Assembly (NCBI GenBank): GCA_965224245.1
Contig: OZ245046.1
Location: 2,084,148 to 2,148,147 of the forward strand
DNA from: Candidatus Eiseniibacteriota bacterium
GTDB taxonomy: Bacteria > Eisenbacteria > RBG-16-71-46 > CAZAMP01
DNA length: 64,000 bases
Reading direction: 5' to 3'
Shown: piece after piece, positions 40,303 to 64,000 of the stretch
Layout of the letters: each line of letters begins with the position of its first letter
Position numbering within the stretch: the first letter of the stretch is position 1
Translations under genes and position numbers: made by a program
Notes under the pieces: model-generated
The model's input: the letters and a program-made list of their open reading frames with translations, nothing else
Told to the model about the DNA's origin: nothing
Databases searched by the model: none

Positions 40303-40303
40303 G

Positions 40304-43985: not shown

Positions 43986-44545
43986 GGCGGCTGGAAGCAG
44001 TGGCGGCATCGCGCCTCGTAGACGTCGGCGGCCCCGACCACGATGCGCTCGCCCGACGGTGTCTTGCGCTGGCTCCGATTGCCCGGCCCCCCGCACACCA
44101 CGCAGATGGCCAGCGTCTTGGTGATGTACTCGGCGATGGCCAGGAGCTCGGGGATCGGCTCGAACGGGCGACCGCGGTAGTCGGTGTCGAGCCCGGCGAC
44201 GATCACCCTCCGGCCGCCCGCCGCGAGATCCTGACACACACCGACCACGCGCGGACCGAAGAACTGCACCTCGTCGATGCCCACGACCTGGGCGTCGCCG
44301 GCCAGCTCGGCGATCTCGGCCGACGTGGACACGGCCTGCGACGGCAGGCTGATCTGACTGTGCGACACGATGTGATCGGCGCGGTAGCGGTCGTCGAGCT
44401 TGGGCTTGAAGATCGCCACCCGCTGCTTGGCGATCTCGGCGCGGCGCAGACGGCGAATGAGCTCCTCGGACTTTCCGCTGAACATGCTGCCGCAGATGAC
44501 TTCGACCCAGCCCGGCCGTCCGGCCGGATGCGGCGGTGGATTCAT
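43973..44545 (-). CDS. tdk: thymidine kinase
   Basis: '[17 protein letters not shown]', '[10 protein letters not shown]', C-terminal zinc ribbon 'CVVCGGPG...RCRHCF'. Confidence 0.85.
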
Positions 44546-44598: not shown

Positions 44599-45237
44599 TC
44601 AGTTCATGCCCGCGAGCTGCGAGCGGATCTTGGTCTTCAACAGATCGACGGCCACGTGATTGTAGCCGCCCTCGGGAATGATGACGTCGGCGTAGCGCTT
44701 GGTGGGCTCGATGAACTGCTGGTGCATCGGCCGGACGTACGCCTCGTACTGCGCGATGATCGACTCGACCGAGCGCCCGCGCTCGAACACGTCCCGCTTG
44801 AGGCGGCGGATGAACCGCACGTCGGGATCGGTGTCGATGTACACCTTGATCCGCATCTTCTCGCGCAGTCGCCGGTCGTAGAACACGAGAATACCCTCCA
44901 GGATCACGATCCGCGAGCCGCCGGCGCGCGTGGTCTCCCGGGTGCGAACGTGGTTGACGTAGTCGTACACGGGGACGTCCACGTGCGTGCCGGACAGCAG
45001 CGTGTCGACGTGAGCCCGCAGGAGGTCGGTGTCGAACGCGTCTGGATGGTCGAAGTTGAACGCGGCGCGCTCGGGCTCGGGCATGTGGCCGAGGTCACGG
45101 TAGTAGTTGTCCTGCCGGAGGATGACGACCTTGTCGGGCCCCAGGTCGTCGTAGATGGACCGGGCCACCGACGTCTTGCCGGAGCCGCTGCCACCGGCGA
45201 TGCCGATCAGGATCCCCTCCTGCTCGCGCAGGATCAT
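44599..45237 (-). CDS. udk: uridine kinase
   Basis: Internal ATG at 45235-45237 gives 212 aa '[15 protein letters not shown]...LRQDNYYRD...YDYVNHVR'. Confidence 0.9.
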
Positions 45238-45539
45238 GCCCCACCTCCCCCGGAGTCCCGGCCGGACGACGGCGAGCGCGATACGTCGTCCACCACCCCG
45301 ACGATCATCGTGCGTACGGGACCACGGCCGGTCTCCATGACCACCGCGGCGCCGCCGCCTTCGTCGTTGACGAGGACCCGATCGCCCACACCCGCGTCCA
45401 CGCTGTCCAGCGCGATCACGTCGTCGGGCTCGAGCTCGCCGCGATCGTTCTCGTACGCGATCACGAGCAGCTTCCATCCCACGAGCGCGGGATGCTTGAC
45501 GGTGGACACCACCTCGCCGGTCACCCGCGCGACACGCAC
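45234..45539 (-). CDS. EutN/CcmL/PduN-family bacterial microcompartment vertex protein homolog
   Basis: GTG at 45537-45539 (GGAGGA 8 nt upstream, 1 nt after the dNK stop) gives 101 aa 'VRVARVTGEVVSTVKHPALVGWKLLVI...ALDSVDAGVGDRVLV...PVRTMIVGVVDDV', collinear with E. coli EutN; the stop overlaps the udk ATG. Confidence 0.7.
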   Translation of the reverse strand: MRVARVTGEVVSTVKHPALVGWKLLVIAYENDRGELEPDDVIALDSVDAGVGDRVLVNDEGGGAAVVMETGRGPVRTMIVGVVDDVSRSPSSGRDSGGGGA

Positions 45540-45540
45540 G

Positions 45541-46194
45541 TCAGTCCTCCGGTCCCGCGTCCAGCGCACCCAGGCGACGCGCGCGGGCCCGTACGTCTCG
45601 GTAGATCCGCTCGAGGCCGTCGTCGAGAAAGTCGGGCGCCTCGGTGTCGACCTCGAGCACCTCGAAGCGATCGCGCGCCTCGGCCATCCAGGCCGCATAC
45701 GCGTTCTCCAGCCGCTGCAGGTACTCGCGCGAGATCCCCTGCTCGCACTCGCGGCCCCGGCTCTGGATCCGCTCCACGTGGGTGTCGATCGACGCCTTGA
45801 GGTACAGGATGAGATCTGGCGGGCGAAGCCCGTCGACCATCTCCCAGAACAGCGATCGGTAGGTGTCGTAGTCGATGCGCGACATGTCCCCTTGCCGGAG
45901 CAATGTCGTCGCGAAGACCTCGGCGTCCTCGTAGATCGTGCGATCCTGGATGAACGAGCGTTTCTCCATCACGAAGCGCTTCTGGGCCTTGTAACGCTCG
46001 GAGAGAAAGTACATCTGCAGGTGGAACGACCACCGCGCCATGTCGGCGTAGAAGTCCTCGAGATACGGGTTCTCGATGACGGGCTCGTAGTACACCGGCC
46101 AGCCCAGTCGCTGGCTGAGCGTGCTCGAGACGTGCGTCTTGCCCACGCCGATGTTGCCGGCGACCGCCAGGAAGAAGCCGCGCCCGGCGCTCAC
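45541..46194 (-). CDS. deoxynucleoside kinase (dAK/dGK/dCK family)
   Basis: P-loop 'VAGNIGVGKTH', 'YYEPVIENPYLEDFY', 'ERS'-type motif region; GTGA overlap with the hpt stop. Confidence 0.85.
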   Translation of the reverse strand: MSAGRGFFLAVAGNIGVGKTHVSSTLSQRLGWPVYYEPVIENPYLEDFYADMARWSFHLQMYFLSERYKAQKRFVMEKRSFIQDRTIYEDAEVFATTLLRQGDMSRIDYDTYRSLFWEMVDGLRPPDLILYLKASIDTHVERIQSRGRECEQGISREYLQRLENAYAAWMAEARDRFEVLEVDTEAPDFLDDGLERIYRDVRARARRLGALDAGPED

Positions 46195-46718
46195 ACGCCC
46201 GCCTCGGCCGGATCGAGAACGCCGATGTAGGGCAGCTCGCGGTGCCGCTCGGCGTAGTCCATGCCGTACCCGACCACGAACTTGTCGGGGATCGCGAAGC
46301 CCACGTAGTCCACCTTCACGTCCACCTCGCGCCGATCCACCTTGTCCAGGAGCGCGCAGGTCCTGAAGGACCGGGGGCGCCGGATCTGGAGGCTATCGCG
46401 CATGTAGGCCAGCGAGCGACCCGAGTCCACGATGTCCTCGACGAGCAAGAGATCGCGGCCGGAGACGTCGGTGTCCAGGTCCTTCAGCAGGCGCACGACG
46501 CCGCTGGAGGACGTGCCGTCCCCGTACGAGGACACGGACATGAAGTCGACCTCGTGCGGGATCGGCAGCCTGCGCATGAGGTCCGACATGAACATGAACG
46601 AGCCCTTGAGGACGCCGACCAGGATCAGGTCGGCGTCGGGACCGTAATCGCGCGTGATCTCCCCGGCGAGCTCGTCGACCCGCCGGTCGATCGCCTCGCG
46701 CGTGATGAGTATCTCCAC
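46191..46718 (-). CDS. hpt: hypoxanthine phosphoribosyltransferase
   Basis: GTG at 46716-46718 (GGGGGGAG upstream) gives 175 aa; PRPP motif 'LLLVEDIVDSGRS', 'YVGFAIPDKFVVGYGMDYAERHR'. Confidence 0.85.
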   Translation of the reverse strand: MEILITREAIDRRVDELAGEITRDYGPDADLILVGVLKGSFMFMSDLMRRLPIPHEVDFMSVSSYGDGTSSSGVVRLLKDLDTDVSGRDLLLVEDIVDSGRSLAYMRDSLQIRRPRSFRTCALLDKVDRREVDVKVDYVGFAIPDKFVVGYGMDYAERHRELPYIGVLDPAEAGV

Positions 46719-46851
46719 GGCTGAGCTCCCCCCTGCGCGCGCTTGCGGAATTGAGTCGGCGAGGGTAGCGTCCCGCTCGAGAGGGGTCAATCGGTCTCCC
46801 CGGCACACGCCGCAACGCGGTACGGCTCCGAACGCTCGCCCCGAGGTCGCC

Positions 46852-47949
46852 ATGGCAGACGACGCCACCACCCATCCTCCGATCACCCGCGAGCTGATCC
46901 TCGCGCTTCCCAAGACCGACCTCCACGTACACCTGGACGGATCCCTCCGGCCGGAGACCGTGCTGGAGCTGGTCGGGCAGTACGGGATCGAGCACCCGGC
47001 GAGGACTCCCGCCGAGATGCAGCGCGCGCTCAGCGTGGACGGGTCCCGATCCCTCGAGGAGTACCTCGAGGTCTTCGAGTTCACGCTGCGCCTGCTCCAG
47101 GAGCGCTCGTCCATCGAGCGAGTGGCCTACGAGCTGGCCGTCGACGCGGCCGCCGAGAACGTCCGGCACCTGGAGGTGCGATTCGCCCCGATTCTCCATC
47201 AGAGTCAGGGCCTCTCGCTGGACGAGATCCTGGACGCGGCCCTCGCCGGGCTCTCGCGGGCGAACTCCGAGACCGGCATCCGGACCGGCGTCATCGTGTG
47301 CGGCATCCGGCACATCCGCCCCGAGCGCTCGCTCGATCTGGCCGACCTGGCCGTGCGCTACAAGCACCGGGGCGTGGTCGCGTTCGATCTGGCCGGCGCC
47401 GAGCGGGACAACCCCGCCAAGCATCACCTGGAGGCGTTCTACCGGGTCCTCAATGCGAACCTCAGCTGCACCGTGCACGCCGGTGAGGCGTTCGGCCCGG
47501 CCTCCATCCACCAGGCCATTCACTACTGCGGCGCGCACCGGATCGGGCACGGCACACGGCTTCGGGAGGACCCCGAGCTCCTGGCCTACGTCAACGATCA
47601 CCGGATCCCGATCGAGATGTGCCTCACGTCCAACCTGCACACCGGCGCGATCTCGCGCCTCGAGGACCATCCGTTCCGCGACTACTTCGACCTGGGGCTC
47701 CGGGTCACGCTGAACACCGACAACCGGCTCATCTCGAACACGACGGTCACCGACGAGCTGGTCCTGGCCTGCGAGATGTTCCGGCTCACGCCCGGCGAGC
47801 TACGCTACGTGATCCTGAACGGATTCAAGAGCGCCTTCCTGCCCTTCGCCGAGAAGGTCGAGATGATGGCCCGCGTCGTGGAGGAGCTGGATTCGGTGCT
47901 CCAGGCGCATCATCCCGACAGCTCCCACCACGGCCGGTCGATCCTCTGA
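46852..47949 (+). CDS. add: adenosine deaminase
   Basis: Internal ATG at 46852; 'LPKTDLHVHLDGSLRPET', 'HAGE', 'HRIGHG', 'TLNTDN'; the listed ORF has a spurious 5' extension. Confidence 0.9.
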   Translation: MADDATTHPPITRELILALPKTDLHVHLDGSLRPETVLELVGQYGIEHPARTPAEMQRALSVDGSRSLEEYLEVFEFTLRLLQERSSIERVAYELAVDAAAENVRHLEVRFAPILHQSQGLSLDEILDAALAGLSRANSETGIRTGVIVCGIRHIRPERSLDLADLAVRYKHRGVVAFDLAGAERDNPAKHHLEAFYRVLNANLSCTVHAGEAFGPASIHQAIHYCGAHRIGHGTRLREDPELLAYVNDHRIPIEMCLTSNLHTGAISRLEDHPFRDYFDLGLRVTLNTDNRLISNTTVTDELVLACEMFRLTPGELRYVILNGFKSAFLPFAEKVEMMARVVEELDSVLQAHHPDSSHHGRSIL

Positions 47950-49359: not shown

Positions 49360-49409
49360 CGACGCGCACCCTGCGCCTCATCCAGCGCCGGCGTCCCGCC
49401 GGACACGAG

Positions 49410-49445
49410 AAACGCCTCCCCGGGCCGGTGCCCGGGGAGGCGTTT
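49410..49445. terminator. bidirectional intrinsic terminator hairpin
   Basis: Perfect 15-bp inverted repeat AAACGCCTCCCCGGG / CCCGGGGAGGCGTTT with a 6-nt loop, between convergent genes ending at 49359 (+) and 49511 (-). Confidence 0.6.
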
Positions 49446-49510
49446 CGTCGTGTCGTCCGAGACCGTTGCCGGCCGAGGCGGCCCGTGGCCGCCCCGGGTC
49501 GACATCCGGT

Positions 49511-51289
49511 CTAGCGATACTGGCTCTTGATCTGGCCCCAGCTCTTGCGGTGGATCGGGGTCGGGCAGCTGACGCCGTCCTCGATGTCCGTCCGCCGCCG
49601 CGGCAGGACCTGGTAGCCCTCGTCGTACGGCGAGGAGCTGTCGAACTGGCCCGCGATCCCGGTGATCGTGAACGGCATGACCGGAATGGCCGAGCCGTCG
49701 ATGTCGGTGTCGCTGTCCACGCGCATCTCCGAGGGACCGGTACCGTCGTCGATCACGAGGTTGACGCTCACGCCGTCGGCCGGCCACTCGCCCGAGATGA
49801 TCTCGACGCCGCAGATCTTGATCAGGCAGTCGTCGTAGGCCTCGCCGTTGGAGGCGTACTCGCCGGTCGTGATCTCGATGGGCTCCGGCAGCGGCGCGGT
49901 GCCGGAGATCACGAGGCTCGTGATGCTGGTGATCTCGGTCTTGCCGTTGAAGAAGTCCAGCGTCCCGACGACCTCGGTGATGAAGTCACCCTCGGCGATC
50001 GGGTTGGCGAAGGTGTCGTAGCTGAAGTCGAAGAGCGTGATGCAGCAGCCGGTCGACGGCTGGTAGACCTGGATCTCCAGGCCGCCCACCCGGAACACGT
50101 CGGTGGCCACGGTGGCCACGACGTCCGTGATGCGCACGAGCTCGCCGAAGTGAACCGGGAAGCCGTTCGCGTCGTTCTCGTCCAGCTGACAGACGGTGTA
50201 GTCGGTCGGATCGGTGACCGGATCGCAGTCCGGATCGTTGAACGCGCCCGGCGTGGGCGTGATGTCGGCCACGAAGTCCTCGGCGTTGTCGTCGGTGTCC
50301 ACGCCGTCGGGGCAACGCGCGATCGACGTGCCACCCGGGACGTCCGGCGCCGCGGTCCCGCCCTCGCAGACCAGGTCCGGATCCTCGCCGTAGCACACGC
50401 TGTCGATGTTCTCGGCGGGGTCGGTGATGTCGTATGTGCCGTCGCCGTTGGCGTCGAAGGCCAGGACGACCTGGTCCGGTCCGTTCTGCCAGTCGGCGGT
50501 CGCGTCGATGAAGTCGGCCTCGGCCACCGTCGCGTCCTGGGCCACCACGAAGTAGCCGTCGCCCGGGATCGCGTTGCCGTCGAGCACGAGCGTCGCGTAC
50601 ACGACGCCGCCGTTGCCGTTCACGCCGATGAGCGCGTGACCGTCGAGGCTCTGGCCCGCGTTGCCGTAGAGCTCGGTGAACATACCCACGTCGGTGCCCG
50701 AGCCGTCGTAGAGCACCTCGTTGATCACGAGCGCGACGCCCGTGCCGCAGACGAGATCGTTCTCGGCGCCCGGCGTCGGCGTGTCGTCGGCCAGGAAGTC
50801 GACCTCGTTGTCGTCGGTGTCGGAGCCGTCCGGACAGCGGGCGAGCGAGACGCCGCCGAAGACGTCCTCGGCGAAGGTGCCGCCCTCGCAGACGAGGTCG
50901 GGATCGGAGCCGTAGCACACGCTGTCGATGATGTTCACTCCCTGCACCAGGCGGACCTGATCGGGGCCGTTCTGCCAGTCCGCGGTGCCGTCGACGAGGT
51001 CGGCCTCGGTCACGGTCGCGTCCTGACCGACGACGAAGTAGCCGTCGGCGGGAATCACGGATCCGGTCAGATCGATCGTCGCGTACACGACGCCGCCGTT
51101 GCCGTTGACGCCCTCGAGCGCGTACCCGTCGAGGCTCGTGCCGGGCTCGCCCTTGAGCTCGGTGAACATGCCCGCATCGGTGCCCGGGCCGTCGTACAGC
51201 AGCTCGTTGATGACGATCTGCGCTCCTGCCGTCCCGGCGAACCCGGTCAGCGCGAGAACGGACGCGATCGTCACTTGCAACCGCTTCAT
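49511..51289 (-). CDS. secreted protein with two tandem lamin-tail-like domains
   Basis: Internal ATG at 51287-51289 (AAGGAG upstream); signal peptide 'MKRLQVTIASVLALTGFAGTAGA'; two ~162-aa repeats each with 'INE(L/V)LYDG.GTD.GMFTEL', 'GVNGNGGVVYAT', 'GYFVV.QDATV', 'DSVCYG.DPDLVCEGGT', 'ARCPDG.DTDDN'. Confidence 0.75.
   Translation of the reverse strand: MKRLQVTIASVLALTGFAGTAGAQIVINELLYDGPGTDAGMFTELKGEPGTSLDGYALEGVNGNGGVVYATIDLTGSVIPADGYFVVGQDATVTEADLVDGTADWQNGPDQVRLVQGVNIIDSVCYGSDPDLVCEGGTFAEDVFGGVSLARCPDGSDTDDNEVDFLADDTPTPGAENDLVCGTGVALVINEVLYDGSGTDVGMFTELYGNAGQSLDGHALIGVNGNGGVVYATLVLDGNAIPGDGYFVVAQDATVAEADFIDATADWQNGPDQVVLAFDANGDGTYDITDPAENIDSVCYGEDPDLVCEGGTAAPDVPGGTSIARCPDGVDTDDNAEDFVADITPTPGAFNDPDCDPVTDPTDYTVCQLDENDANGFPVHFGELVRITDVVATVATDVFRVGGLEIQVYQPSTGCCITLFDFSYDTFANPIAEGDFITEVVGTLDFFNGKTEITSITSLVISGTAPLPEPIEITTGEYASNGEAYDDCLIKICGVEIISGEWPADGVSVNLVIDDGTGPSEMRVDSDTDIDGSAIPVMPFTITGIAGQFDSSSPYDEGYQVLPRRRTDIEDGVSCPTPIHRKSWGQIKSQYR
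50219..51220 (-). repeat. intragenic tandem duplication (2 x about 486 bp)
   Basis: DNA-level repeat, e.g. 'cgtcgcgtacacgacgccgccgttgccgtt' at 50591-50620 and again at 51077-51106; period 486 nt equals the 162-aa protein repeat. Confidence 0.65.
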
Positions 51290-51530
51290 GCGATGCACTC
51301 CTTTTGCGTTGCTGGCACTGGACCGCCGGAGCCTCACCCGGCCGGGTCCCGCGCGCAGGCGGGCACCCTCCCGGCCGGCCGACACCCGAACGGTCGGTCG
51401 CTGGATCTCCCATGGTCGCGTCATTTGCGTCAAGTCTATCACCGGCCTCGGTTTGGTACCACATGCGCGGCCCCCATCGGGCCCCATCACGAAGTTCTCA
51501 TCCACCGGCGCGCTTGCTAGACTGCCGCGC

Positions 51531-51974
51531 ATGAGCGCTCACCCCAAGCGACCGGACGGCCCTGCGCGCCCCGATCCGGGCACACGGGCCGCCCTCGAGG
51601 GCCTCGTCTCCCGGTGCGGGCCGTCGCCCGGTGACCAGTGCCCCGCTCTCGCGGCCTGCGGCGACACCGCGGGCCCGATCGGGGTCGCGGTCACGGTCCG
51701 GAGCCAGACGCCCGGCCTCGGCGCCTGCGCGACCCGGCTCGTCCTGGCCCGCGCCGTGGCCGAGGGACGGGCCGCCACACACCTGGTCGTGGACGGCGAC
51801 TGGCAACGGCTGTGCGGGCTCTGCCTGCAGACCCTGCTCGAGCTGGCGCCCGAAGCCCCGGTCTTTCCGCTCGGCCCCAACCCCTCGGCCCCGGTGCCCT
51901 GGCGATCGTTGATCCCGGATCCGTTCGTCTCGTTCATCCCCGAGCCGGCCCCCGGAGGCCCCCGTGTCGACTGA
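51531..51974 (+). CDS. hypothetical Cys-containing protein
   Basis: ATG at 51531; high GC3; 147 aa with 'CGPSPGDQCPALAACGD' and 'CGLC'; its stop overlaps the rpiB start. Confidence 0.5.
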   Translation: MSAHPKRPDGPARPDPGTRAALEGLVSRCGPSPGDQCPALAACGDTAGPIGVAVTVRSQTPGLGACATRLVLARAVAEGRAATHLVVDGDWQRLCGLCLQTLLELAPEAPVFPLGPNPSAPVPWRSLIPDPFVSFIPEPAPGGPRVD

Positions 51975-52431
51975 CCGGCCGAGGCGGGTCGCCATCGGAG
52001 CCGACCATGCCGCCTATCGTTACAAGGTCTCGCTCATGGAGTGGATGAGAGAGGAGCTGGCGGGCGTGTCGGTCCTGGACTGCGGCACCCACTCCGAGGC
52101 CCCGGTCGACTACCCCGACATCGCGGCCGCGGTCGCGAACGCGGTCCGGACCGGCGAGGTGGACCGCGGCATCGTCATCGATCACGCCGGGATCGGATCC
52201 ACGATGGCCGCGAACAAGATCCGCGGGGTCCGGTGCGCGCTGTGCCACGACGAGGCGACCGTCCTCAACAGCCGCCGCCACAACGACGCGAACGTCCTGG
52301 CGCTGGGAAGCGCGGTCGTGAACGTCGGCTACGCGCGCACGCTCGTCCGCGTGTGGCTCGCCGCGCCGTTCGAGGGCGGACGGCACGCGCGGCGCGTGGA
52401 CAAGATCATGGCGCTCGAGGGCTCGTCGTGA
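51964..52431 (+). CDS. rpiB: ribose-5-phosphate isomerase B (RpiB/LacAB family)
   Basis: 'RVAIGADHAAY...VIDHAGIGSTMAANKIRGVRCAL...RRHNDANVLALG...EGGRHARRV' aligns with E. coli RpiB; GTG start. Confidence 0.85.
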   Translation: MSTDRPRRVAIGADHAAYRYKVSLMEWMREELAGVSVLDCGTHSEAPVDYPDIAAAVANAVRTGEVDRGIVIDHAGIGSTMAANKIRGVRCALCHDEATVLNSRRHNDANVLALGSAVVNVGYARTLVRVWLAAPFEGGRHARRVDKIMALEGSS

Positions 52432-53234
52432 TCGTCCCCGGCGGCAACGCCGTCCCGCCCGCGCTCCGCCGGGCCATCGAGGAGCGCGGCCCGAGCGCGA
52501 GTCCGGCGGCCGGGGGCCGTGCCCCGATCGCCTCGATCGCGTCGGTCGTCGACCACACGCTGCTCCGGGCCGACGCCTCGCAGACCCAGATCGAGACGCT
52601 CTGTGCCGAGGCGATCGAGTACGGCTTCGCGTCGGTGTGCGTGAATGCGATCTGGGTGCCGGTGGCCGCGCGCGCGCTCACCGGGTCGGACGTGAGCGTG
52701 TGCACGGTGGTCGGCTTTCCGCTGGGTGCCATGCGCTCGCCGATCAAGGCGCTCGAGGCCGAGACCGCCCGGGCACGCGGCGCGCGGGAGATCGACATGG
52801 TGGTGAACGTGGGCGAGCTGATCGGCGGCGGCGCCGACCGGGTCCGCGAGGACATCGCAACCGTCCGCCGCGTGCTGTCACCCGACGCCACGCTGAAAGT
52901 GATCCTGGAGACGGCGTTCCTCTCCGACGACCAGAAGCGACTGGGCGCCCGCGTGGCCGTCGAGGCCGGCGCGGACTTCGTGAAGACGTCCACCGGCTTC
53001 GGCCCCGGCGGAGCGACGGTGCCCGACGTGCGGCTGCTCGCCGAGACCGTGGGCGAGCGGTGCCGGGTCAAGGCCTCGGGCGGCATCCGGACGCTCGCCG
53101 CGGCGCGGGCCCTCGTCGAGGCGGGCGCGGCGCGCATCGGGGCCAGCGCCGGCGTGGCGATGGCGCGTGAGGAGCGCGGGCTCTCGACGACGACGACGAT
53201 CCCATCGGCCCCACCGCCTCACGGCGGCTACTGA
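52428..53234 (+). CDS. deoC: deoxyribose-phosphate aldolase
   Basis: GTG at 52428 overlapping the rpiB stop; 'VDHTLL', 'VVGFPLG', 'KVILET', Schiff-base lysine region 'AGADFVKTSTGF', 'KASGGIRT'. Confidence 0.85.
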   Translation: MIVPGGNAVPPALRRAIEERGPSASPAAGGRAPIASIASVVDHTLLRADASQTQIETLCAEAIEYGFASVCVNAIWVPVAARALTGSDVSVCTVVGFPLGAMRSPIKALEAETARARGAREIDMVVNVGELIGGGADRVREDIATVRRVLSPDATLKVILETAFLSDDQKRLGARVAVEAGADFVKTSTGFGPGGATVPDVRLLAETVGERCRVKASGGIRTLAAARALVEAGAARIGASAGVAMAREERGLSTTTTIPSAPPPHGGY

Positions 53235-53365: not shown

Positions 53366-56269
53366 ATGCGCATGACGTTGCCGCTTCATCAGCGCCGCCG
53401 AGCCCTCCCGGGCCTCGTCGCGATCGTCCTGGTCACGCTGGCGACGCTCGTCGCGTCGACGACGACCGCCGGCCTCGCGCGCGCGGCGGACGCCCCCGCC
53501 GGTCAGACCGGCATCGTCCGGGGCACGGTCGTGGACGGCGACTCCCAGGAGCCCCTCCCCTTCGCCAGCATCATCGTCAAGGGGACCACGCGCGGCGCTC
53601 CGTCGCGCGACGACGGCTCGTTCGGCATTCGCGGCGTCGCCACCGGCAGCCAGGCGCTGCTGGTGACCTACGTCGGCTACTCGCCGATGGAGTTCCCCGT
53701 CCTCATCCATGCCGGCGAGGTGACCACGGTGCGCATCGAGCTGTCGCGGTCGGTCGGCTCGGTCGAGGAGGTCAAGGTCTTCGGAGACCGTCCCCTCGTG
53801 GACGTGCGCGAGACGTCCTCGTTGAAGACGCTCTCCACGCAGGACATCGACGACCTGACGATCGAGCCCACGCTGGAGTCGCTGCTGGGTCAGCAGGCCG
53901 GCGTGTCGGTCCAGGACGGTGAGATCCACATCCGGGGCGGACGATCCGACGAGACCGCGCTGATCGTGGACGGCGTGTCGCTGAAGGACGCCGTCTCGGG
54001 CGCGGCGGTGGCGGGCGCGCTCAGCGCCGGATCGGCGGCCGAGGTGTCGGTGGCCAAGGGCGGCTGGAGCTCCAAGCACGGTGACGCGATCAGCGGCGTC
54101 GTCGACGTGCGGGTGCGCGAGGGCACCGAGCAGTGGAAGGGCTCGGTCAGCTACACCACCGATGCGATGGTGGGCACGCAGTCGCTGCACTACGCCAATC
54201 TCCAGCTGAGCGGACCCAACGTGCTGTTGAAGCCGTTCTCGGCGCTGTTCGGCATCGACCGCTCGCAGCCGGCCACGTTCCACCTCGACCTGTCGACCGA
54301 GCTGTCGGACACGTACCTGCCCTCGGTCCGGGATCTCGGCCCGGGACGCCGGCGACTGAAGTCGTCGTACGTCAACACGCTCCTCGGGAAAGACCTCGAC
54401 TTCGGAGACTTCTTCACCCCGCGCGGCAGCAACGACTGGCGCTTGACCGCGAAGACGGGCTGGACGGTTCATCCCGCGCACAAGCTCACCGCCACGTACA
54501 TCAAGTCGCTCGGCTTCTCGAGCCAGTTCCAGGCGGTGGACATCGGGGAGGTGAACCAGAACATCACGCAGTACCCGTGGGCCTGGAGCCACCGCCTCGA
54601 CGACCACTACACGATCTCGACCGACTTCTACGCGCTGTCGCTGCAGTGGAAGCACTCGCTGGGCGACACGAAGTACCATCAGCTGCGCACCAAGTATCGC
54701 TTCTCGGCCACGCACCAGGACGTCCGCGGCCTGAACTGGGCCGACTACGAGGAGCCGTCGGACGAGATTCTCGACGACGATCACCCGTACTTCGTCGACT
54801 CCGGCACCGCGCCCCAGTACCACGACCGCTACTCCGAGCTGGCCGGCATCGACTGGGACTTCGTGTCCAACGGCGAGCACCACGACGTCGAGTTCGGGGT
54901 CAGTGCCGGCTACGAGGACGTGCAGTACTTCAGCCTCGACGCCTACAGCGTGACCCAGGACGCGCCCCTCGGTGACGAGTACGACCTCTTCCGCGTCTTC
55001 CCGGCCAAGGGCAGCTTCTACGTCGACGACAAGATCGAGTATCCCGGCATCGTCATGCGCGTGGGTGTGCGCGGCGACGTCTTCTTCCCGGGCGAACGCG
55101 TGGAGCGCCTGTTCGACGCGGCCGATCGACCGGGCTTCAACGAGGCCACGCGGGCGGAGTGGTACGACGCCACGAACGAGATCTTCGGGCGGCGCTACAA
55201 GATCCGCTTCAGTCCGAGCCTGGGGATCAGCCATCCGATCACCGATCGCAGCAACTTCTTCTTCAACTACGGTCGGTTCACGAAGTGGCCCACGTACTTC
55301 TACATGTACGCGGCCACGGGCGGCATCTCGTCGCCGGAGTTCGCCAACATCGGCAACCCCAACCTCGACCCACAGATCTCCGCGCAGTACGAGTTCGGTG
55401 TGGGGCACCGGCTCTCGGATCGGCTCTCGCTTCGCGCACAGGTCTTCTTCAAGGACATCTACGACTACCCGACGTCGGTGCCCGTGGAGCTCGGCACCCG
55501 CGAGACCCGGCGCCAGACGTTCTTCGTCTACCGCAACGCCGACTACGGGCGATCGCGTGGAATCGAGATCGAGGTGCAGCGCCGGCGCGAGCGCTACGCC
55601 TGGTACTCGGCCAGCTACTCGTTCTCGGTGGCCTCCGGCAAGTCGTCCGATCCTAATGCGCTCAACGTCGTGCAGTCGCTCGGTGGCGACGCGCGAGAGA
55701 CCGATCTCGAGGAGCAGTTCCTGTGGTGGCATCGCCCACACAAGCTGACGCTGTCGGGCGGCTATCAGGTCGACGCCGATCAGCGCGCCCCGAAGCTCTT
55801 CGGGTGGAGGCTTCCCAGGGAGTGGAAGCTGAGCTTCTTCTGGCTTCTCCAGTCCGGCGAGGCCTACACGCCGACCACCCCGCTGGGTACGCGCATCGAC
55901 AAGAGCTACTCGCGCAACGGCCCCATCGACAGCGTGTTCGATCTGAACGTGGTCAAGACGTTCCGGGTGGGCGATCGGCCCTTCCAGCTCACGTTCTCGG
56001 CCCGCAACCTTTTCAACCACCGGACGGTGCTCGAGATCGACTCGGCCACCGGAGACTCGCCGCGATCGGGGCTGGGCTCGAACTGGCGACCCGCCGAGAG
56101 CCCGCAGGAGCTCGTCGCCGTGGGCTACACGGTGCGTGAGACCGACACGCTGTACGAGGAGCTGGCCGGCTTGAACGACGCCATCGTGCGTTCGATGACC
56201 GGGCTGTTGAACCCCGCGTACATCGCCGCGCCGCGCAGCCTCCGGGTGGGCATCGGCTATGAGTGGTAG
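53366..56269 (+). CDS. TonB-dependent receptor, SusC-like (carboxypeptidase-regulatory-like domain, plug, beta-barrel)
   Basis: Signal peptide; 'GIVRGTVVDGDSQEPLPFASIIVKG...YVGYSP' CarboxypepD_reg-like; plug 'VEEVKVFGDRPLVD...IHIRGGRSDETALIVDGVSL'; barrel ending in an aromatic residue '...RVGIGYEW'; start could be 53330 (GTG), 53366 or 53372. Confidence 0.8.
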   Translation: MRMTLPLHQRRRALPGLVAIVLVTLATLVASTTTAGLARAADAPAGQTGIVRGTVVDGDSQEPLPFASIIVKGTTRGAPSRDDGSFGIRGVATGSQALLVTYVGYSPMEFPVLIHAGEVTTVRIELSRSVGSVEEVKVFGDRPLVDVRETSSLKTLSTQDIDDLTIEPTLESLLGQQAGVSVQDGEIHIRGGRSDETALIVDGVSLKDAVSGAAVAGALSAGSAAEVSVAKGGWSSKHGDAISGVVDVRVREGTEQWKGSVSYTTDAMVGTQSLHYANLQLSGPNVLLKPFSALFGIDRSQPATFHLDLSTELSDTYLPSVRDLGPGRRRLKSSYVNTLLGKDLDFGDFFTPRGSNDWRLTAKTGWTVHPAHKLTATYIKSLGFSSQFQAVDIGEVNQNITQYPWAWSHRLDDHYTISTDFYALSLQWKHSLGDTKYHQLRTKYRFSATHQDVRGLNWADYEEPSDEILDDDHPYFVDSGTAPQYHDRYSELAGIDWDFVSNGEHHDVEFGVSAGYEDVQYFSLDAYSVTQDAPLGDEYDLFRVFPAKGSFYVDDKIEYPGIVMRVGVRGDVFFPGERVERLFDAADRPGFNEATRAEWYDATNEIFGRRYKIRFSPSLGISHPITDRSNFFFNYGRFTKWPTYFYMYAATGGISSPEFANIGNPNLDPQISAQYEFGVGHRLSDRLSLRAQVFFKDIYDYPTSVPVELGTRETRRQTFFVYRNADYGRSRGIEIEVQRRRERYAWYSASYSFSVASGKSSDPNALNVVQSLGGDARETDLEEQFLWWHRPHKLTLSGGYQVDADQRAPKLFGWRLPREWKLSFFWLLQSGEAYTPTTPLGTRIDKSYSRNGPIDSVFDLNVVKTFRVGDRPFQLTFSARNLFNHRTVLEIDSATGDSPRSGLGSNWRPAESPQELVAVGYTVRETDTLYEELAGLNDAIVRSMTGLLNPAYIAAPRSLRVGIGYEW

Positions 56270-57284
56270 CGCGCACGCAGCCGCGGCGATCGGCGCTGCC
56301 CGCGCGGCCGCCGCCGCTCTCGCGGCGATGGCGGTCCTCTCGTGCCTGGCGGGCCCCGTCTCGGCCATCGGCGACCAGCGCTCGGGCACCAGCTCGGGCA
56401 CGTTCCTCAAGATCGCCGCCGATCCCCGGGGCGCCGCGATGGGCAACGCCGTGGTGGCCGACGCGCCCGGGATCACCGCGCTCGTCTGGAACCCGGCATC
56501 GCTGACCACGCTGGGCACGATGCAGCTCATGGCGTCGTACACGCGCTGGCCGGGCGAGATCGACTACTCGTACGCGGCGCTGGCCAGCTACGTCGGGCGC
56601 TTCTCCGGCACCGTGGGGCTCCAGATCGGCCACCTCGGCGTCGTCATGGAGGAGACGACCGAGGCCAATCCGACCGGGACCGGCGAGAACTTCGGCGTCC
56701 GGGACTGGTTTCTGGCGGGAACCTACGCGCGCCGGTTCACCGACCGGCTCTCGTTCGGCCTCACCGCCCGGTTGGTGCGCGAGGAGCTCGGCACCGAGAT
56801 CGGCGGTCCGTCCTCCACGAACGTGCTGTTCGACTTCGGGACGCTCTACTACATGGACTTCCTCGATCTGAAGCTGGCGTTCGCGCTCCAGCACTTCGGT
56901 CCCGAGTTTCAGCCCAGCGGTGAGTACGTCTCGGCCGCGACCGGCGCGGAGACGAGCTACGAGCCCTTCGCCCCTCCCACGACGTTCCGCCTCGGCGTTT
57001 CGGGTCCCATCCATCGCACCGAGCACACGCTGATCCGGGGCAACGTCGAGATGAACCACTTCTCGGACGCCGACGAGACGCTCCGCGTGGGCACCGAGTT
57101 CGGCTTCGACGACATGTTCTTCGTGCGCGCCGGATACGACATCGCCGCGGACGCGATGAAGTTCTCGGCTGGAGCGGGCTTCCACACGCGTTTCGGATTC
57201 AGCACCGGAGACGCGGACTACGCGTTCACCGATGCCGGCCCACTGGGAGTGGTACACCGCGTTGCGATTCGCATCGATCTGTAG
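56259..57284 (+). CDS. PorV/PorQ-like (FadL-fold) outer-membrane beta-barrel protein
   Basis: Signal peptide; N-terminal 'GTFLKIAADPRGAAMGNAVVADAPGITALVWNPASL' matches the FadL/PorV-family motif; amphipathic beta-strand pattern; start overlaps the last codons of the receptor gene. Confidence 0.5.
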   Translation: MSGSAHAAAAIGAARAAAAALAAMAVLSCLAGPVSAIGDQRSGTSSGTFLKIAADPRGAAMGNAVVADAPGITALVWNPASLTTLGTMQLMASYTRWPGEIDYSYAALASYVGRFSGTVGLQIGHLGVVMEETTEANPTGTGENFGVRDWFLAGTYARRFTDRLSFGLTARLVREELGTEIGGPSSTNVLFDFGTLYYMDFLDLKLAFALQHFGPEFQPSGEYVSAATGAETSYEPFAPPTTFRLGVSGPIHRTEHTLIRGNVEMNHFSDADETLRVGTEFGFDDMFFVRAGYDIAADAMKFSAGAGFHTRFGFSTGDADYAFTDAGPLGVVHRVAIRIDL

Positions 57285-57312: not shown

Positions 57313-59274
57313 GTGGGCCGCGCCCGGAGGATCCTGGCGCTCTGGGGGACGGGTACGATCGTGATCGGTTGTGCCGAGAAGTTCGACCTGCCGCCGGTGC
57401 CCGAGCCGTTCATCCCGGTACCCGGTGCGTACAACTTCGACCACGAGTGGCGCGGCATGGGACGCGTCGTGGACATGGCGATGACGGGCGTGCAGCTGTA
57501 CGTGCTGACCGAGCGCGACGGCAGCCGCACCGTGGAGGGCTACCTGGCCACCGCGGCCGAGCCGGTCGAGCTCCCGGACTTCCTGATCGGCGACTACGCC
57601 GGCGCCCGGCGCCCGGTCGCGATTGCGCAGCAGGGCGATCACCTGTACGTGGCCGATGCACGCGGCCCCGACGCCTTGACCCTCGAACGCGAGTGCGGCG
57701 GCGACGACTGCGCGCTTCGGCTGACCGCGGGCGCCGGCGGCTCGATCCAGCACCTGGCCGGCCGCGACCTCGTCGAGCGCGTCCGACAGGACTTCCGGCT
57801 CGACATGCGCTTCCGCCTCGACGCGTTCCCCGACGGGTCGCGCGCGTGGATCACGCTGGGGACGGCACCCGGGCGGCCGGCGATCTGGCTCGAGGTGGGG
57901 CGCGATCGGTTCATCCGGCCCGTGCGCTCGGACGGCGCGTTCCCGGTGGACTCGCTGGCCTTCGGGCTCGGCGAATGGCACGACATCTCGATTCGTCACG
58001 ATTGGGCCGGAAGCACGTACGCGGTCACGATGGACGGCACGCGCTTCACGACCAACGTCCCCGTCTACTATCCGCTGGAGGACGACGCCATCGGCGCGCT
58101 GTCGATCCGGCTGACCGGCGACGGTGTCTCGGGCGCCGTGGACGACGTCGTGCTGTCGATCGACCAGAGGGCGCCGGGCGCGATCACCGATCTGACCGTC
58201 GAGCCGGTCAGCGCGGCGGCGGTGCGTCTGCGCTGGACGGCACCCGGCGACGACGGCGACACCGGCACCGTGGAGCGATACGAGATCCTGTGGGCTCGCC
58301 GCGAGGCGCTGCTCGAGGACGGCACTCCGGTACCGGGGCCCACCCCGCTGCCGGCGGGGAGCCTCCAGACGTTCGATCTCCTGGGCCTGGGAGGCGCCGA
58401 TTCGGTCTACGTGTACGTGACCGCATACGACGAGAGCGACAACGCGGGTCCCCCGTCGAACCTGGCGGTCACCGCCGTGACGTCGCCGCATCGCGTCCCG
58501 CGGGCTGCGCGAGCGGGACGGCCGGCCCGCACGCTTCCGGACACGCTCCTCGTCATCGACTTCGAGGACGTGTCGGAGCTGGACGCGTGGACTCTCGGTC
58601 CGTTCTTCACCAACGACCCGGCCCCGGCCGTCCTGCGCTACGATCTCCGCGAGGGCGGCGACCCGGAGCTCGCGATGACGAACCCCGACTGGTATCACGT
58701 GCACGGGATCGCGGTCTCCCCCACGCGCATCGTGTACGTGTCGGTGGAGACGCGCGACCCGGCCGATCCGTCCGGGGTGCTCCGGCTGGGCGAGATCCAG
58801 CGCTTCGACGCCGCGGGGCGCCCGCTCGAGCCCCTGGCCGAGAGCGGGAGCGGCGCCGGCTTCGTCTCCTCGCCGCGTGGCATCTACTTCGACAGCGAGA
58901 ACGTGCTCGTGGCCGACGCCGAGCTGAACCGCGTGCAGAAGCTGGACGCGTCCACCACCAACGAGGGTCTCGTGCAGATCCCTCCGCTCGACGTCAGCGA
59001 GGCCTGGTTCAGCGCGCCCACCGAGGTGGTCAGCGACGAGCGGCTGTTCATCTACGTCGCGGACACCGGCTCGGATCGCATCCTCCGCTTCGACCGCGAG
59101 GGTGCGTTCGCGGACACCGTGTACGCCCCGATGTACGAGCCGACCATCGGCGCCGGCGTCCTCGCGCGCCCCAGCGCGATCGAGGCCGACTCCGCCAGCG
59201 TGTGGGTGGCCGACCCGGCAAACGAGCGCATCGTCGTCCTGACGCGGGCGGGCACGATCTCGGGAGGTGGATGA
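57313..59274 (+). CDS. lipoprotein with fibronectin-III-like and NHL-repeat-like regions
   Basis: GTG at 57313 gives signal plus lipobox 'RILALWGTGTIVIGC'; 'VRLRWTAPGDDGDTGTVERYEIL' Fn3-like; repeated 'LY(V/I)AD...R(I/V)..LD' NHL-like blades; the ATG at 57232 is an alternative start. Confidence 0.6.
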   Translation: MGRARRILALWGTGTIVIGCAEKFDLPPVPEPFIPVPGAYNFDHEWRGMGRVVDMAMTGVQLYVLTERDGSRTVEGYLATAAEPVELPDFLIGDYAGARRPVAIAQQGDHLYVADARGPDALTLERECGGDDCALRLTAGAGGSIQHLAGRDLVERVRQDFRLDMRFRLDAFPDGSRAWITLGTAPGRPAIWLEVGRDRFIRPVRSDGAFPVDSLAFGLGEWHDISIRHDWAGSTYAVTMDGTRFTTNVPVYYPLEDDAIGALSIRLTGDGVSGAVDDVVLSIDQRAPGAITDLTVEPVSAAAVRLRWTAPGDDGDTGTVERYEILWARREALLEDGTPVPGPTPLPAGSLQTFDLLGLGGADSVYVYVTAYDESDNAGPPSNLAVTAVTSPHRVPRAARAGRPARTLPDTLLVIDFEDVSELDAWTLGPFFTNDPAPAVLRYDLREGGDPELAMTNPDWYHVHGIAVSPTRIVYVSVETRDPADPSGVLRLGEIQRFDAAGRPLEPLAESGSGAGFVSSPRGIYFDSENVLVADAELNRVQKLDASTTNEGLVQIPPLDVSEAWFSAPTEVVSDERLFIYVADTGSDRILRFDREGAFADTVYAPMYEPTIGAGVLARPSAIEADSASVWVADPANERIVVLTRAGTISGGG

Positions 59275-61318: not shown

Positions 61319-62839
61319 ATGGAGTCGAGTCGATCGATTGGAGCCATCGGGGCGCGCGCGGCTCTCGCGGCGGCCTCGGTGGTGCTGGTCGTGGCCGGCT
61401 GCGAGGCCCCCACCGGCTCCCGGGTCGGCAACCTGCCGCCCGAGACGTACCTGTTCATCAGTGACGCCGAGACCGACACCACGAGCTACGTCGTGGACCT
61501 CCACTGGTGGGGATCGGACCCCGACGGCGACGTGGTCGAGTATCAGTTCCGGATCGACAGCCTGTGGACTCCCGATCCGACCGATACGTTGACCGCCGAC
61601 GACCCGCCGTGGGTCCGCACGGTCCGCACCGAGCGGACGTTCACGCTGCCGGTCGAGGGCACCGGCCGGTCGGCGGTGGTGACGTTCCGCGCCGTCGACG
61701 ACGCGGGCGCGATCGACCCGATGCCGGTCACCCAGACCTTCCACCTCCGGAACCGAAAGCCGACGCTGGAGTTCGGCACAGACCTGGCTCGGCCCACCCG
61801 CTCGCTGCCCGCGGTCACGTTCTCGGTGGTCGCCGAGGACCCCGAGGGCGACGAGACGATCGTCGGCTACCGCGTGTGGTTCGACGGCGAGGACCGGGAG
61901 ACGGACGCGCGCACGATCCCCGGGCCCGCGGTGGCCCAGATCGCGCTCGGTCCCGACGACTTCCCGAGCGCCGGCGCGCTGACGATCAACATCGTGGCCG
62001 TCGACGACTCGAACACCGAGAGTGACCGGGTGCTCCGGCACACGTGGGACGTCATCGACACCGAGGCCAAGCGGGTCCTCATCGTCGATCAGTATCCCGC
62101 CGGTGGGCTGTTCGACGCGGACATCGCCGCGTTCTGGCGGAACGTCACCGAGGCGCGCCTGTCACCGGACGAGATCATCACGTTCGACTACACGGCCGAC
62201 GGCGGCTTTCGCACGACGGCCGAGGTGGAGCTGAGCTTCTCGGCATTCGAGGCGGTCATCTGGTACTCGGGGCTCCAGCCGAACAACCTGACCCAGACGC
62301 TCCGGCGCATCCAGGAGCTCAGGCGGGCCAGCCAGGCGATGGAGCGATACACCGCCGGCGGCGGGAACGTGCTCCTGTCGAGCACGTTCGCGTTCGGAAA
62401 TGCAGTGAACCCGACCGAGGGTGCGGCGTCGGCCGCCTGGGATTCCGCCGCCACGTATCGCCTCTTGCGGATCACGCGCGAGTTCACGAACCCTCAGGGC
62501 AACACGAACTTCCTGTTGTTCCCGACGATCACGTTCGGCTTTCCGGCCGAGTGGGCACTCCCGACCACGCATCCGCAGGGACTGCTGAACTACGTGGACT
62601 TCCTGGCCGTCCCGACCCGCATGACCCGGCTCATGTGGGTGCCTCCGGGGTCTCTCAACGTGGGCTTCGACGATGACGGCAACTTCGTCCAGAACGAGGT
62701 CGACTACGACTGCGCGTTCCGGATCGACACCGAGGGCGGCGGCGCGTTCGTCATCGCCACGCTGCCGCTGTCGCGGCTGAACCCGATCACCTCGGGCGAG
62801 ACGTTCGTGAACCGGGCGTTCGATGCGTTCGGGCTCTGA
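61319..62839 (+). CDS. hypothetical lipoprotein
   Basis: AGGGG 10 nt upstream; signal plus lipobox 'AALAAASVVLVVAGC'; 506 aa with no recognisable catalytic motif. Confidence 0.55.
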   Translation: MESSRSIGAIGARAALAAASVVLVVAGCEAPTGSRVGNLPPETYLFISDAETDTTSYVVDLHWWGSDPDGDVVEYQFRIDSLWTPDPTDTLTADDPPWVRTVRTERTFTLPVEGTGRSAVVTFRAVDDAGAIDPMPVTQTFHLRNRKPTLEFGTDLARPTRSLPAVTFSVVAEDPEGDETIVGYRVWFDGEDRETDARTIPGPAVAQIALGPDDFPSAGALTINIVAVDDSNTESDRVLRHTWDVIDTEAKRVLIVDQYPAGGLFDADIAAFWRNVTEARLSPDEIITFDYTADGGFRTTAEVELSFSAFEAVIWYSGLQPNNLTQTLRRIQELRRASQAMERYTAGGGNVLLSSTFAFGNAVNPTEGAASAAWDSAATYRLLRITREFTNPQGNTNFLLFPTITFGFPAEWALPTTHPQGLLNYVDFLAVPTRMTRLMWVPPGSLNVGFDDDGNFVQNEVDYDCAFRIDTEGGGAFVIATLPLSRLNPITSGETFVNRAFDAFGL

Positions 62840-63106: not shown

Positions 63107-64000
63107 ATGCAGCGAGCCATCGGCTCTCTCGTGTGCGCCGGCGTGGCGTTGACCGCGATGGTCGCCCCCGCCGTCGCCGACCTGACCATCTACGACATCC
63201 AGGGATACGGAGCTGTGACGCCGGGCAATCCCGTGGACGTCGACGGCGTCGTCGTCACGGGCATCTACGCGTTCGGGTTCATGGCGCAGGAGCCCGACGA
63301 GGATGCCGGGTCGTCGATGTTCGGCCGCACGTACGGCGGGATCTGGGTGTACACCGGCGGCGCGCCGGACGTCGAGTTCGGCGATCTCGTGGACCTGGAA
63401 GGCGAGTACCAGGAGTTCTTCGACGAGTCCGAGATCGACGTGACGGTGGCCGGCAGCAGCGTGATGATCGTCGGAACCGCCCCGCAGCCGCCGTACCTTC
63501 CGGTCGTCATCACCGACATCAACGACGAGCTCGCCGGTGAGCCGTGGGAGGGCGTCCTGATCGAGACCACGCAGCCGAACATGGTCTCCACCGATACCCT
63601 CAACACCGGCTGCGGCAGCGCCTCCCCGACGCGCTGGGGCGTCTACCAGACCAGCGCGCCGACCGACTCGCTCTTCGTGCGAAACTCGGTCACCACGCAC
63701 GAGATCCCGATCCCCGGATCGCCGATCTCGTACCTCCGTGGCCCGATGAGCTTCCACCGGTGCCTCCGGAAGGTCATTCCCCGGGACAACGACGACATCG
63801 GCTACATCGCCGCGCCCAACATCGTCTGGGCGTACTCGACCGGCAACACGTCGTGCGACATCGTGTTCAGCCGCGACGTCACCCAGGCCAGCGCCGAGGA
63901 TGTGCTCAACTACTTCTTCGCCTCCGGGGTCGCGGTTCTCGCCGCCGAGCGCGACGCGAGCGACTTCAGCGTCGTCCACCTGACGACGTCGACACAGTTC
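63107..64000 (+). CDS. hypothetical secreted protein, 3'-truncated by the window edge
   Basis: Not in the ORF track because it has no stop; ATG at 63107 with AAGGAG 7 nt upstream; 298 codons open to the window end; signal peptide 'MQRAIGSLVCAGVALTAMVAPAVA'; high GC3. Confidence 0.55.
   Translation, partial: MQRAIGSLVCAGVALTAMVAPAVADLTIYDIQGYGAVTPGNPVDVDGVVVTGIYAFGFMAQEPDEDAGSSMFGRTYGGIWVYTGGAPDVEFGDLVDLEGEYQEFFDESEIDVTVAGSSVMIVGTAPQPPYLPVVITDINDELAGEPWEGVLIETTQPNMVSTDTLNTGCGSASPTRWGVYQTSAPTDSLFVRNSVTTHEIPIPGSPISYLRGPMSFHRCLRKVIPRDNDDIGYIAAPNIVWAYSTGNTSCDIVFSRDVTQASAEDVLNYFFASGVAVLAAERDASDFSVVHLTTSTQF

Follow-up and report, generated by a model that had tools for sequence, protein, structure and literature searches.

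The window analysed here, a stretch of 64,000 nucleotides (nt) of contig OZ245046.1 from a Candidatus Eisenbacteria genome (assembly GCA_965224245.1) with a guanine plus cytosine (G+C) content of ~69%, carries an operon that opens with a gene for a TonB-dependent receptor and continues with a gene for a PorV-like outer-membrane barrel. Across related genomes these two proteins are joined by a third, a secreted protein of 678 amino acids (aa) in the window, here named P678, and the triad of receptor, P678-family protein and PorV-like barrel is the constant core of the locus, usually followed by a beta-propeller protein. The initial annotation of this DNA had proposed a two-barrel module, a SusC-like receptor with a FadL/PorV-like partner in place of a SusD-like lipoprotein, and had not noticed the P678 family. 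Its two translationally coupled barrels were borne out, but there is more to the module than two barrels, as a P678-family partner is always present and a beta-propeller usually so. We propose that six genes encode an outer-membrane capture and import module, SusC/SusD-like in its working, in which the PorV-like barrel docks proteins with a type IX secretion C-terminal domain (CTD) beside the importer and the substrate is nucleic acid, a proposal to which we give about an even chance of being right.

The receptor and the PorV-family barrel

In the receptor, a signal peptide and a carboxypeptidase-regulatory-like N-terminal domain come first, then a TonB-box-like motif, a plug and a barrel, with a tryptophan as the last residue. 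Pfam places CarbopepD_reg_2 at residues 63-150 (E 5.5e-18), Plug at residues 162-257 (26.8 bits against a gathering cut-off of 23.9) and TonB_dep_Rec_b-barrel at residues 404-894 (E 1e-23), so that the plug looked for by profile search is present. The TonB-box-like motif, EEVKVFGDRP, lies between the N-terminal domain and the plug, and both it and the plug motifs are kept across 54 aligned sequences, window included. The chain ends in ...GYEW, followed by the stop codon TAG at 56267-56269. Judged by this layout of plug, barrel, TonB-box-like motif and terminal aromatic residue, the receptor is predicted to be a genuine TonB-dependent transporter. Its earlier description as SusC-like holds for the N-terminal layout but not for family membership. 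The SusC/RagA model TIGR04056 scores 67.4 bits against a cut-off of 368.25, and its match is confined to receptor residues 63-228, the N-terminal ~165 residues, which correspond to model positions 3-167. Because the score is this low and the match N-terminal only, the receptor is placed by sequence outside the true SusC/RagA family. The closest solved structures, 9gbc_A and RagA 6sli_B, are likewise matched by the N-terminal part only.

The protein encoded next has a signal-peptide-like N-terminus carrying the motif quoted in the initial annotation, and its ATG at 56259 precedes the end of the receptor TAG at 56269, giving an overlap of 11 nt. Overlap, length and signal peptide can all be read in the sequence as first described. 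Profile search confirmed the suggested FadL/PorV-family membership and not an unrelated family, with the NCBIfam model NF033709 (PorV/PorQ family) scoring 167.2 bits against a cut-off of 90 at positions 3-325/326. With the family profile of the protein, the solved PorV of Flavobacterium johnsoniae (6h3i_F) is matched at E 1.9e-25, and TodX-type FadL proteins at E about 5e-4 only. Scores on the 341 aa protein stay below the cut-offs of the equivalog models for PorV (NF033710, 61.6 against 250 bits), PorQ (NF033711, 71.3 against 220 bits) and PorV2 (NF052325, 43.9 against 325 bits), and below that of Pfam PF03349 Toluene_X, the FadL/TodX family (20.7 against 29.7 bits, E 1.6e-4). By these profile scores the barrel is a PorV/PorQ-family member of a separate subfamily, and not PorV, PorQ or PorV2. 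In agreement with the initial annotation, no SusD-family match was found in the five downstream proteins or the neighbours, using Pfam, NCBIfam and the annotation of related loci.

The pairing is also conserved in related genomes. Scanning one genome per species yielded 55 loci, nearly all from Candidatus Eisenbacteria metagenome-assembled genomes (MAGs) at 36-43% identity, with one at 59% and one from a Rhodothermaceae genome at 30%. In each of the 52 informative loci, the gene immediately upstream of the PorV-like gene encodes the receptor. Two of the remaining three (L020 and L059; related loci are numbered in this way throughout) begin at contig ends, and in the third, L057, on the "chromosome" CP070702.1, an assembly gap of 100 N (9900-9999) takes up exactly the expected receptor position. 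In L028 (8109-9995), from a long-read MAG, the receptor is split over several reading frames, either through an assembly error or as a pseudogene. Of the 57 sequences scanned for the overlap (the window and 56 loci), 35 have an ATG 11 or 14 nt ahead of the end of the receptor stop codon, and in 4 others an ATG overlaps that stop by 1 or 7 nt. As the start/stop overlap is kept across loci, the translational coupling is itself conserved.

The pairing is far beyond chance, and is also present in single loci from a Rhodothermaceae MAG, a Flavobacteriia MAG, a relative with 34% G+C and others. The weakest PorV-family match, P0061 (E 9.5e-4), encoded at 8001-9098 of L063 from a Bacteroidetes MAG, has no receptor neighbour and adjoins an alpha-2-macroglobulin gene. 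This makes the association a property of the subfamily and not of all PorV/PorQ proteins.

The P678 family and the organisation of the operon

P678 has no sequence match in Pfam, NCBIfam or the PDB. An exhaustive profile search gave 7003 cluster representatives (50% identity) at E <=1e-3 and 884 at 1e-30, and 46 of 47 diverse members are without a Pfam match, the other one matching FlgD_ig. The AlphaFold2 model of P678 (predicted local distance difference test score, pLDDT, 77; predicted template modelling score, pTM, 0.75) begins with a super-sandwich domain resembling domains of glycoside hydrolase (GH) 15/65/94 enzymes, followed by fibronectin-III-like domains. Fold comparison gave no match to the whole chain. 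The last ~125 residues carry VFPNPY, IRIYTLGGDLV, GLYLFSVED and GKFLVLK, hallmark motifs of type IX secretion CTDs, and PNPY, IRIYTL.GDLV and GKF.VIK are conserved among relatives. Direct Pfam and NCBIfam scans of the C-terminal 135 aa were empty at E up to 1. Profile-profile comparison of this region with eight CTDs, from CTD-annotated proteins of the same loci, gave a probability of 95.8% and E 8e-9. These motifs and this match suggest that P678 ends in a divergent C-terminal domain resembling type A of the system for type IX secretion (T9SS). In the window protein this CTD-like region holds an insert of ~25 aa that is missing from some relatives.

The triad occurs in two layouts, the second of which puts the P678 gene at the SusD position, between the receptor and PorV-like genes. 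Intervening genes were tested with the P678 profile in four loci of this second kind, and all four matched: the 608 aa gene of L005 (E 5e-35), the 1388 aa gene of L006 (E 7e-21), the 693 aa gene of L061 from a Rhodothermaceae MAG (E 3e-20) and the 889 aa gene of L064 (E 6e-46). A JGI contig has the same gene order, with an intervening gene of 1040 aa. In L004 and in the Flavobacteriia MAG locus L062, a P678 homologue is found a few genes upstream, accompanied by a homologue of P506 and by CTD proteins. Distant triad loci, whose PorV-like relatives share 27-34% identity, span 34% to 72% G+C. A second P678 paralogue is found directly upstream of the receptor in L003 (5116-7110) and also in L011, L017, L022, L026, L031 and L050, and where many Eisenbacteria loci have this paralogue the window has deoC.

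Five genes of the window operon are tightly packed, in the order receptor, PorV-like, NHL, P678 and P506, and a sixth begins at 63107 (Table 1). Public gene calls give the same boundaries for three of these operon proteins, and searches with the window proteins (tblastn) recovered the five-gene order in essentially every locus with enough flank. The NHL gene follows the PorV-like gene after a gap of 28 nt. From GTG 57313 it encodes MGRARRILALWGTGTIVIGC, with the lipobox VIGC (the longest open reading frame, ORF, runs from 57232), and Pfam detects NHL at E 3.1e-9 and fn3 at E 0.0035. Its orthologues come after the PorV-like gene in most loci. The lipoprotein is ~650 aa long in the window against 384-542 aa in orthologues (L001, L002, L003), and the extra length includes the fibronectin-III-like stretch, placed before the NHL repeats. 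The P678 ATG overlaps the NHL stop codon (ATGA), and the P506 gene begins 11 nt after the P678 gene. The fold model of P506 (pLDDT 80.5) combines Ig-like sandwiches with a flavodoxin fold of the ThuA/class-I glutamine-amidotransferase kind, and sequence and fold comparison yielded no family and no catalytic assignment.

The sixth gene runs off the window and is kept downstream in 29 loci. The N-terminal part of NF033681 (ExeM/NucH) matches its product at E 1.9e-8, and the L001 orthologue at 1e-13. Full-length orthologues have two ExeM/NucH-type domains and a FlgD_ig/Por_Secre_tail C-terminal domain, detected by TIGR04183 in L003 (32.2 bits against a cut-off of 23) and by FlgD_ig in L001 (E 3.5e-11). 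We read the N-terminal domain as OB-fold-like, the Pfam OB-fold matches on relatives being sub-threshold.

Table 1. Genes of the window discussed in the text, with the basis of each assignment
Feature	Position	Strand	Basis or remark
Purine/uridine phosphorylase-family gene	32191-33072		7 kb beyond the nucleoside salvage block
PnrA/Bmp-type nucleoside ATP-binding cassette (ABC) importer, complete	39388-44237	-	Pfam Bmp, ABC_tran, BPD_transp_2
ABC importer permeases	40304-41398 and 39388-40302	-	BPD_transp_2 twice
ABC importer ATPase	41365-42900	-	ABC_tran, E 2.3e-49
ABC importer binding protein	42909-44237	-	Bmp, E 1.4e-61
Uridine kinase (udk)	44599-45477	-	Pfam PRK, E 8.7e-46
Deoxynucleoside kinase	45541-46194	-	Pfam dNK, E 8.1e-53
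Phosphoribosyltransferase	46191-47114	-	Pfam Pribosyltran, E 2.2e-25; N-terminal part of ORF probably untranslated
Adenosine deaminase (add)	46654-47949	+	Pfam A_deaminase, E 1.2e-95
Secreted protein, two lamin-tail domains, C-terminal OB-like region	49511-51532	-	Pfam LTD, E 3.2e-12
rpiB, ribose-5-phosphate isomerase B	51964-52431	+	LacAB_rpiB at orthologous position in L001, L003
deoC, deoxyribose-phosphate aldolase family	52500-53234	+	Pfam DeoC, E 2.3e-14; true start maybe slightly upstream
TonB-dependent receptor	53366-56269 (ATG; 967 aa) or from GTG 53330 (979 aa)	+	Pfam domains, SusC/RagA hidden Markov model, motif alignment
PorV/PorQ-family outer-membrane barrel, 341 aa	56259-57284	+	NF033709, solved PorV, overlap read from sequence
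Predicted lipoprotein, NHL beta-propeller repeats and fibronectin-III-like insert	57313-59274	+	Pfam NHL, fn3, lipobox
P678, secreted, 678 aa	59271-61307	+	Predicted structure, profile-profile comparison
P506, predicted lipoprotein, 506 aa, lipobox VAGC	61319-62839	+	Fold model
Sixth gene, signal peptide, ExeM/NucH-type N-terminal non-catalytic domain	63107-64000, runs off window	+	NF033681

Gene context, proposed working and competing explanations

Upstream of the operon the window carries a block of nucleoside salvage genes. Immediately upstream of the receptor, and on its strand, is deoC, and L001, L007, L048, L051, L055 and L056 also have deoC upstream of the receptor. The lamin-tail protein is encoded divergently from the operon, and its L001 orthologue matches the N-terminus of ExeM exonuclease at E 3.8e-5. 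The window protein ends in ...KSWGQIKSQYR, no recognisable CTD and no catalytic domain were found in it, and a sub-threshold DUF5689 match to its C-terminal half (Pfam, E 0.058) is not relied on. Counted over 62 loci, add is directly upstream of the operon in 31 and rpiB upstream in 32, udk is near it in 18 and deoC upstream in 7, and many of the other loci have no upstream flank. In the window the ORFs listed for adenosine deaminase and phosphoribosyltransferase overlap each other, and their true starts are probably internal. As the A_deaminase domain begins at ORF residue 86, the start of add is probably near 46900.

Several features lie further from the module. A hairpin at 49403-49453, between a MobA-like gene and the convergent lamin-tail gene, is probably a bidirectional terminator, with two microRNA models matching it at chance level (E 0.6-0.9). 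An Rfam scan of the window found no riboswitch or other RNA family. Positions 1-37339 hold housekeeping genes (ftsK, metK, ptsI, a GH57 enzyme, hprK, rpoN, a DAHP-synthase-family gene, pyrG), together with genes for RNase G, Lgt, PBP2, MreC, MreB, an NlpC/P60 peptidase, a GWxTD-domain protein and a DUF362 protein. With such core surroundings, the operon sits in a stable chromosomal region and not on an island.

Elsewhere the neighbours of the triad vary. The Flavobacteriia locus L062 encodes an enzyme of the endonuclease/exonuclease/phosphatase (EEP) family with a CTD and a 741 aa ExeM/NucH-like CTD protein. In L005, by contrast, the neighbours are a GntR regulator, an ABC system for sugars, GH38 and CTD-tagged DUF4961/DUF5005 proteins. 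L061 (1-20933) has a GH3/beta-lactamase fusion and an HGSNAT-like acetyltransferase before its receptor, P678-like and PorV-like genes, and further genes for a protein with TIG and propeller domains, a Por_Secre_tail protein and a GHL10 protein with FlgD_ig. As the triad is found in different substrate-specific loci, it looks like a general platform, as SusC/SusD is. For the window, extracellular nucleic acid or oligonucleotides are the most likely substrate, because nucleoside salvage genes adjoin the operon and the flanking proteins carry ExeM/NucH non-catalytic domains; the EEP-family CTD enzyme of L062 and the precedent of the TonB-dependent DNA-utilisation loci ddbABCDEF, discussed below, count in the same direction. 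We hold this with moderate confidence, from gene context alone.

The proposed module would work as follows. Overlapping start and stop codons would allow the receptor and the PorV-like barrel to be made in fixed proportion, and the barrel would sit beside the receptor. The extracellular loops of the barrel may then hold the uncleaved type-IX-style CTDs of P678 and, probably, of the sixth-gene protein. This step is suggested because published cognate PorV-like barrels keep CTDs uncleaved at the surface, in PorU-PorV, PorZ-PorQ and SprF-type pairs (PMC10202324). Docked in this way, the CTD proteins could position substrate-binding modules over the transporter at the cell surface, and the two predicted lipoproteins, the NHL propeller and P506, would complete the complex. 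Captured oligonucleotides would be imported through the receptor in a TonB-dependent manner and processed or dephosphorylated in the periplasm, after which the products might enter through the PnrA-type ABC system for salvage and catabolism by way of add, udk, dNK, the phosphoribosyltransferase, DeoC and RpiB. What the data show directly is which families the proteins belong to, the order and conservation of the genes, their translational overlap, the CTD-like domain and the gene context, while the contact between the barrels, the docking of CTDs, the surface location and the substrate are the parts of this scheme that we infer. A structural precedent for the two-barrel idea is BamG, a barrel of the FadL type that binds both BamA and the surface lipoprotein BamH (PMC12578637, PMC12611786).

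Several observations weigh against this scheme. The window operon yielded no catalytic nuclease or phosphatase domain, and neither the P678 N-terminal fold, with its likeness to carbohydrate-binding super-sandwich domains, nor the ThuA/GATase1-like fold of P506 points to DNA. The adjacency of add and rpiB could be synteny inherited within one phylum. In addition, the CTD models PF18962 (Pfam) and TIGR04183 give no direct match on P678, which is linked to CTDs by profile-profile comparison only.

The same architecture might instead serve an oligosaccharide substrate, with the nucleoside genes merely inherited as neighbours. The resemblance of the P678 N-terminus to the super-sandwich domains of GH15/65/94 enzymes would fit such a substrate, as would the occurrence of the P506 fold in ThuA and in GH42 accessory domains, the presence of relatives in glycan loci (GH38 in L005, GH3/GHL10 in L061) and the nature of rpiB and deoC as genes for sugar-phosphate enzymes. 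However, the surroundings of the operon contain no glycoside hydrolase, either in the window or in those Eisenbacteria loci that were examined, the conserved neighbours are nucleoside-specific (adenosine deaminase, uridine kinase, deoxynucleoside kinase, PnrA-type ABC system), and both flanking secreted proteins bear ExeM/NucH-type domains. We consider a glycan substrate for this operon unlikely, while giving it some weight.

The initial annotation had also raised a coupling of import with export. Taken literally, this was not upheld, as the gene context (nucleoside salvage here, glycoside hydrolases elsewhere) favours import with docking of CTDs at the surface. A related explanation sees in the locus a T9SS sub-complex for attachment or display, comparable to PorQ-PorZ or PorV-PorU, in which the receptor-like barrel would be an anchor or a part of a route for export and not an importer. 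It draws on the PorV/PorQ-family membership of the small barrel, the several CTD proteins encoded in the loci, the propeller protein adjoining the PorV-like gene much as PorZ goes with PorQ, and the apparently single-copy, phylum-wide distribution of the locus in Eisenbacteria. Set against these are the retention by the receptor of a TonB-box-like motif and plug, hallmarks of energised import, the resemblance of the loci to nutrient-utilisation loci with their regulators, ABC importers and hydrolases, and the position of the small barrel below the PorV and PorQ equivalog cut-offs, and we give this explanation little credence.

A further possibility is that the proteins are co-expressed but physically independent, the PorV-like barrel acting as a dedicated shuttle for CTD cargo. 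Canonical PorV does shuttle cargo while unbound to any TonB-dependent transporter (PMC10202324), but the start/stop overlap is kept here across deep divergence (at 11 or 14 nt in 35 of 57 sequences and at 1 or 7 nt in four more) and the receptor is present in every informative locus. Both argue for stoichiometric co-assembly, and independence seems decidedly improbable. Finally, it is hardly credible that the small barrel is a channel of the FadL type, passing hydrophobic molecules beside an unrelated receptor, as the weak Toluene_X and TodX matches stand against the PorV-family score and the match to solved PorV, the barrel is always accompanied by CTD proteins, and no lipid-metabolism genes are present.

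Significance and comparison with known systems

Extracellular DNA is a major pool of phosphorus, nitrogen and carbon in soils and sediments, where Eisenbacteria live, and SusC/SusD pairs are the accepted paradigm for polymer capture in Bacteroidota. The triad of receptor, PorV-like barrel and CTD protein offers a testable answer to the question of which surface-binding proteins serve the transporters of uncultured relatives that lack SusD in the FCB (Fibrobacteres, Chlorobi and Bacteroidetes) superphylum. It also gives a role to many unassigned PorV/PorQ-family paralogues, draws attention to P678 as a large unannotated protein family (at least 7000 clusters at 50% identity), and suggests that TonB-dependent uptake of extracellular DNA has been solved a second time, independently. 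More tentatively, and in our view less likely than not, there may be a widespread, unrecognised class of TonB-dependent "utilisome" across the FCB superphylum, in which a PorV-family barrel docks T9SS CTD-tagged P678 proteins instead of SusD and of which the Eisenbacteria version would serve extracellular DNA. Such a class, if real, would join type IX secretion physically to TonB-dependent import. In the open full-text literature, with subscription journals outside the scope, neither the P678 family nor a pairing of a PorV-family barrel with a TonB-dependent receptor was found described, analogous cases being all that came up.

Among known systems, ExeM/NucH nucleases share lamin-tail and N-terminal non-catalytic domains with the two secreted proteins flanking the operon, whereas their endonuclease/exonuclease/phosphatase catalytic domain was not detected in the window proteins. 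For the proposed substrate, the closest functional analogue would be the Bacteroides DNA-utilisation locus ddbABCDEF, which encodes the transporter DdbC, its DUF5689 partner DdbD, resembling a DNA-binding domain, and secreted nucleases, and which is related to Riemerella natural-transformation genes (bioRxiv 10.1101/2025.03.18.642099). Likened by description, both systems have a TonB-dependent transporter with a non-SusD surface partner, in a locus resembling a polysaccharide utilisation locus and feeding nucleobase or nucleoside metabolism. The module described here differs in having ExeM/NucH-type proteins with T9SS-type CTDs, a PorV-like barrel and P678, and in the window no catalytic nuclease was found.

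The PorV-PorU, PorQ-PorZ and SprA-PorV pairs of the T9SS, and PorP/SprF with type B cargo, resemble the module in that a barrel is encoded with CTD and propeller proteins. Unlike them, the module has its barrel gene expression-coupled to a TonB-dependent receptor and not to porU, in a context of nutrient uptake and not of general secretion. The BamG-BamA-BamH complex likewise has a 14-strand barrel of the FadL/PorV type tightly bound to a larger barrel and holding a surface protein extracellularly. Its large barrel is a different one, however, devoted to protein insertion and not to nutrient import, and BamG belongs to the FadL branch and has an extended N-terminal tail.

With SusC/SusD (RagA/RagB) the module has in common a receptor with a carboxypeptidase-regulatory-like N-terminus, TonB box and plug, encoded first in an operon with surface partners and accessory lipoproteins, in substrate-specific loci. 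In contrast to that system, its receptor falls short of the SusC/RagA model, it has no SusD-like tetratricopeptide-repeat lipoprotein, its partners are a 14-strand PorV-family barrel and P678 with its CTD-like domain, and it occurs mainly outside Bacteroidota. In total, the module combines features of TonB-dependent utilisation loci with the CTD anchoring of the PorV family, apparently as an undescribed alternative to SusC/SusD.

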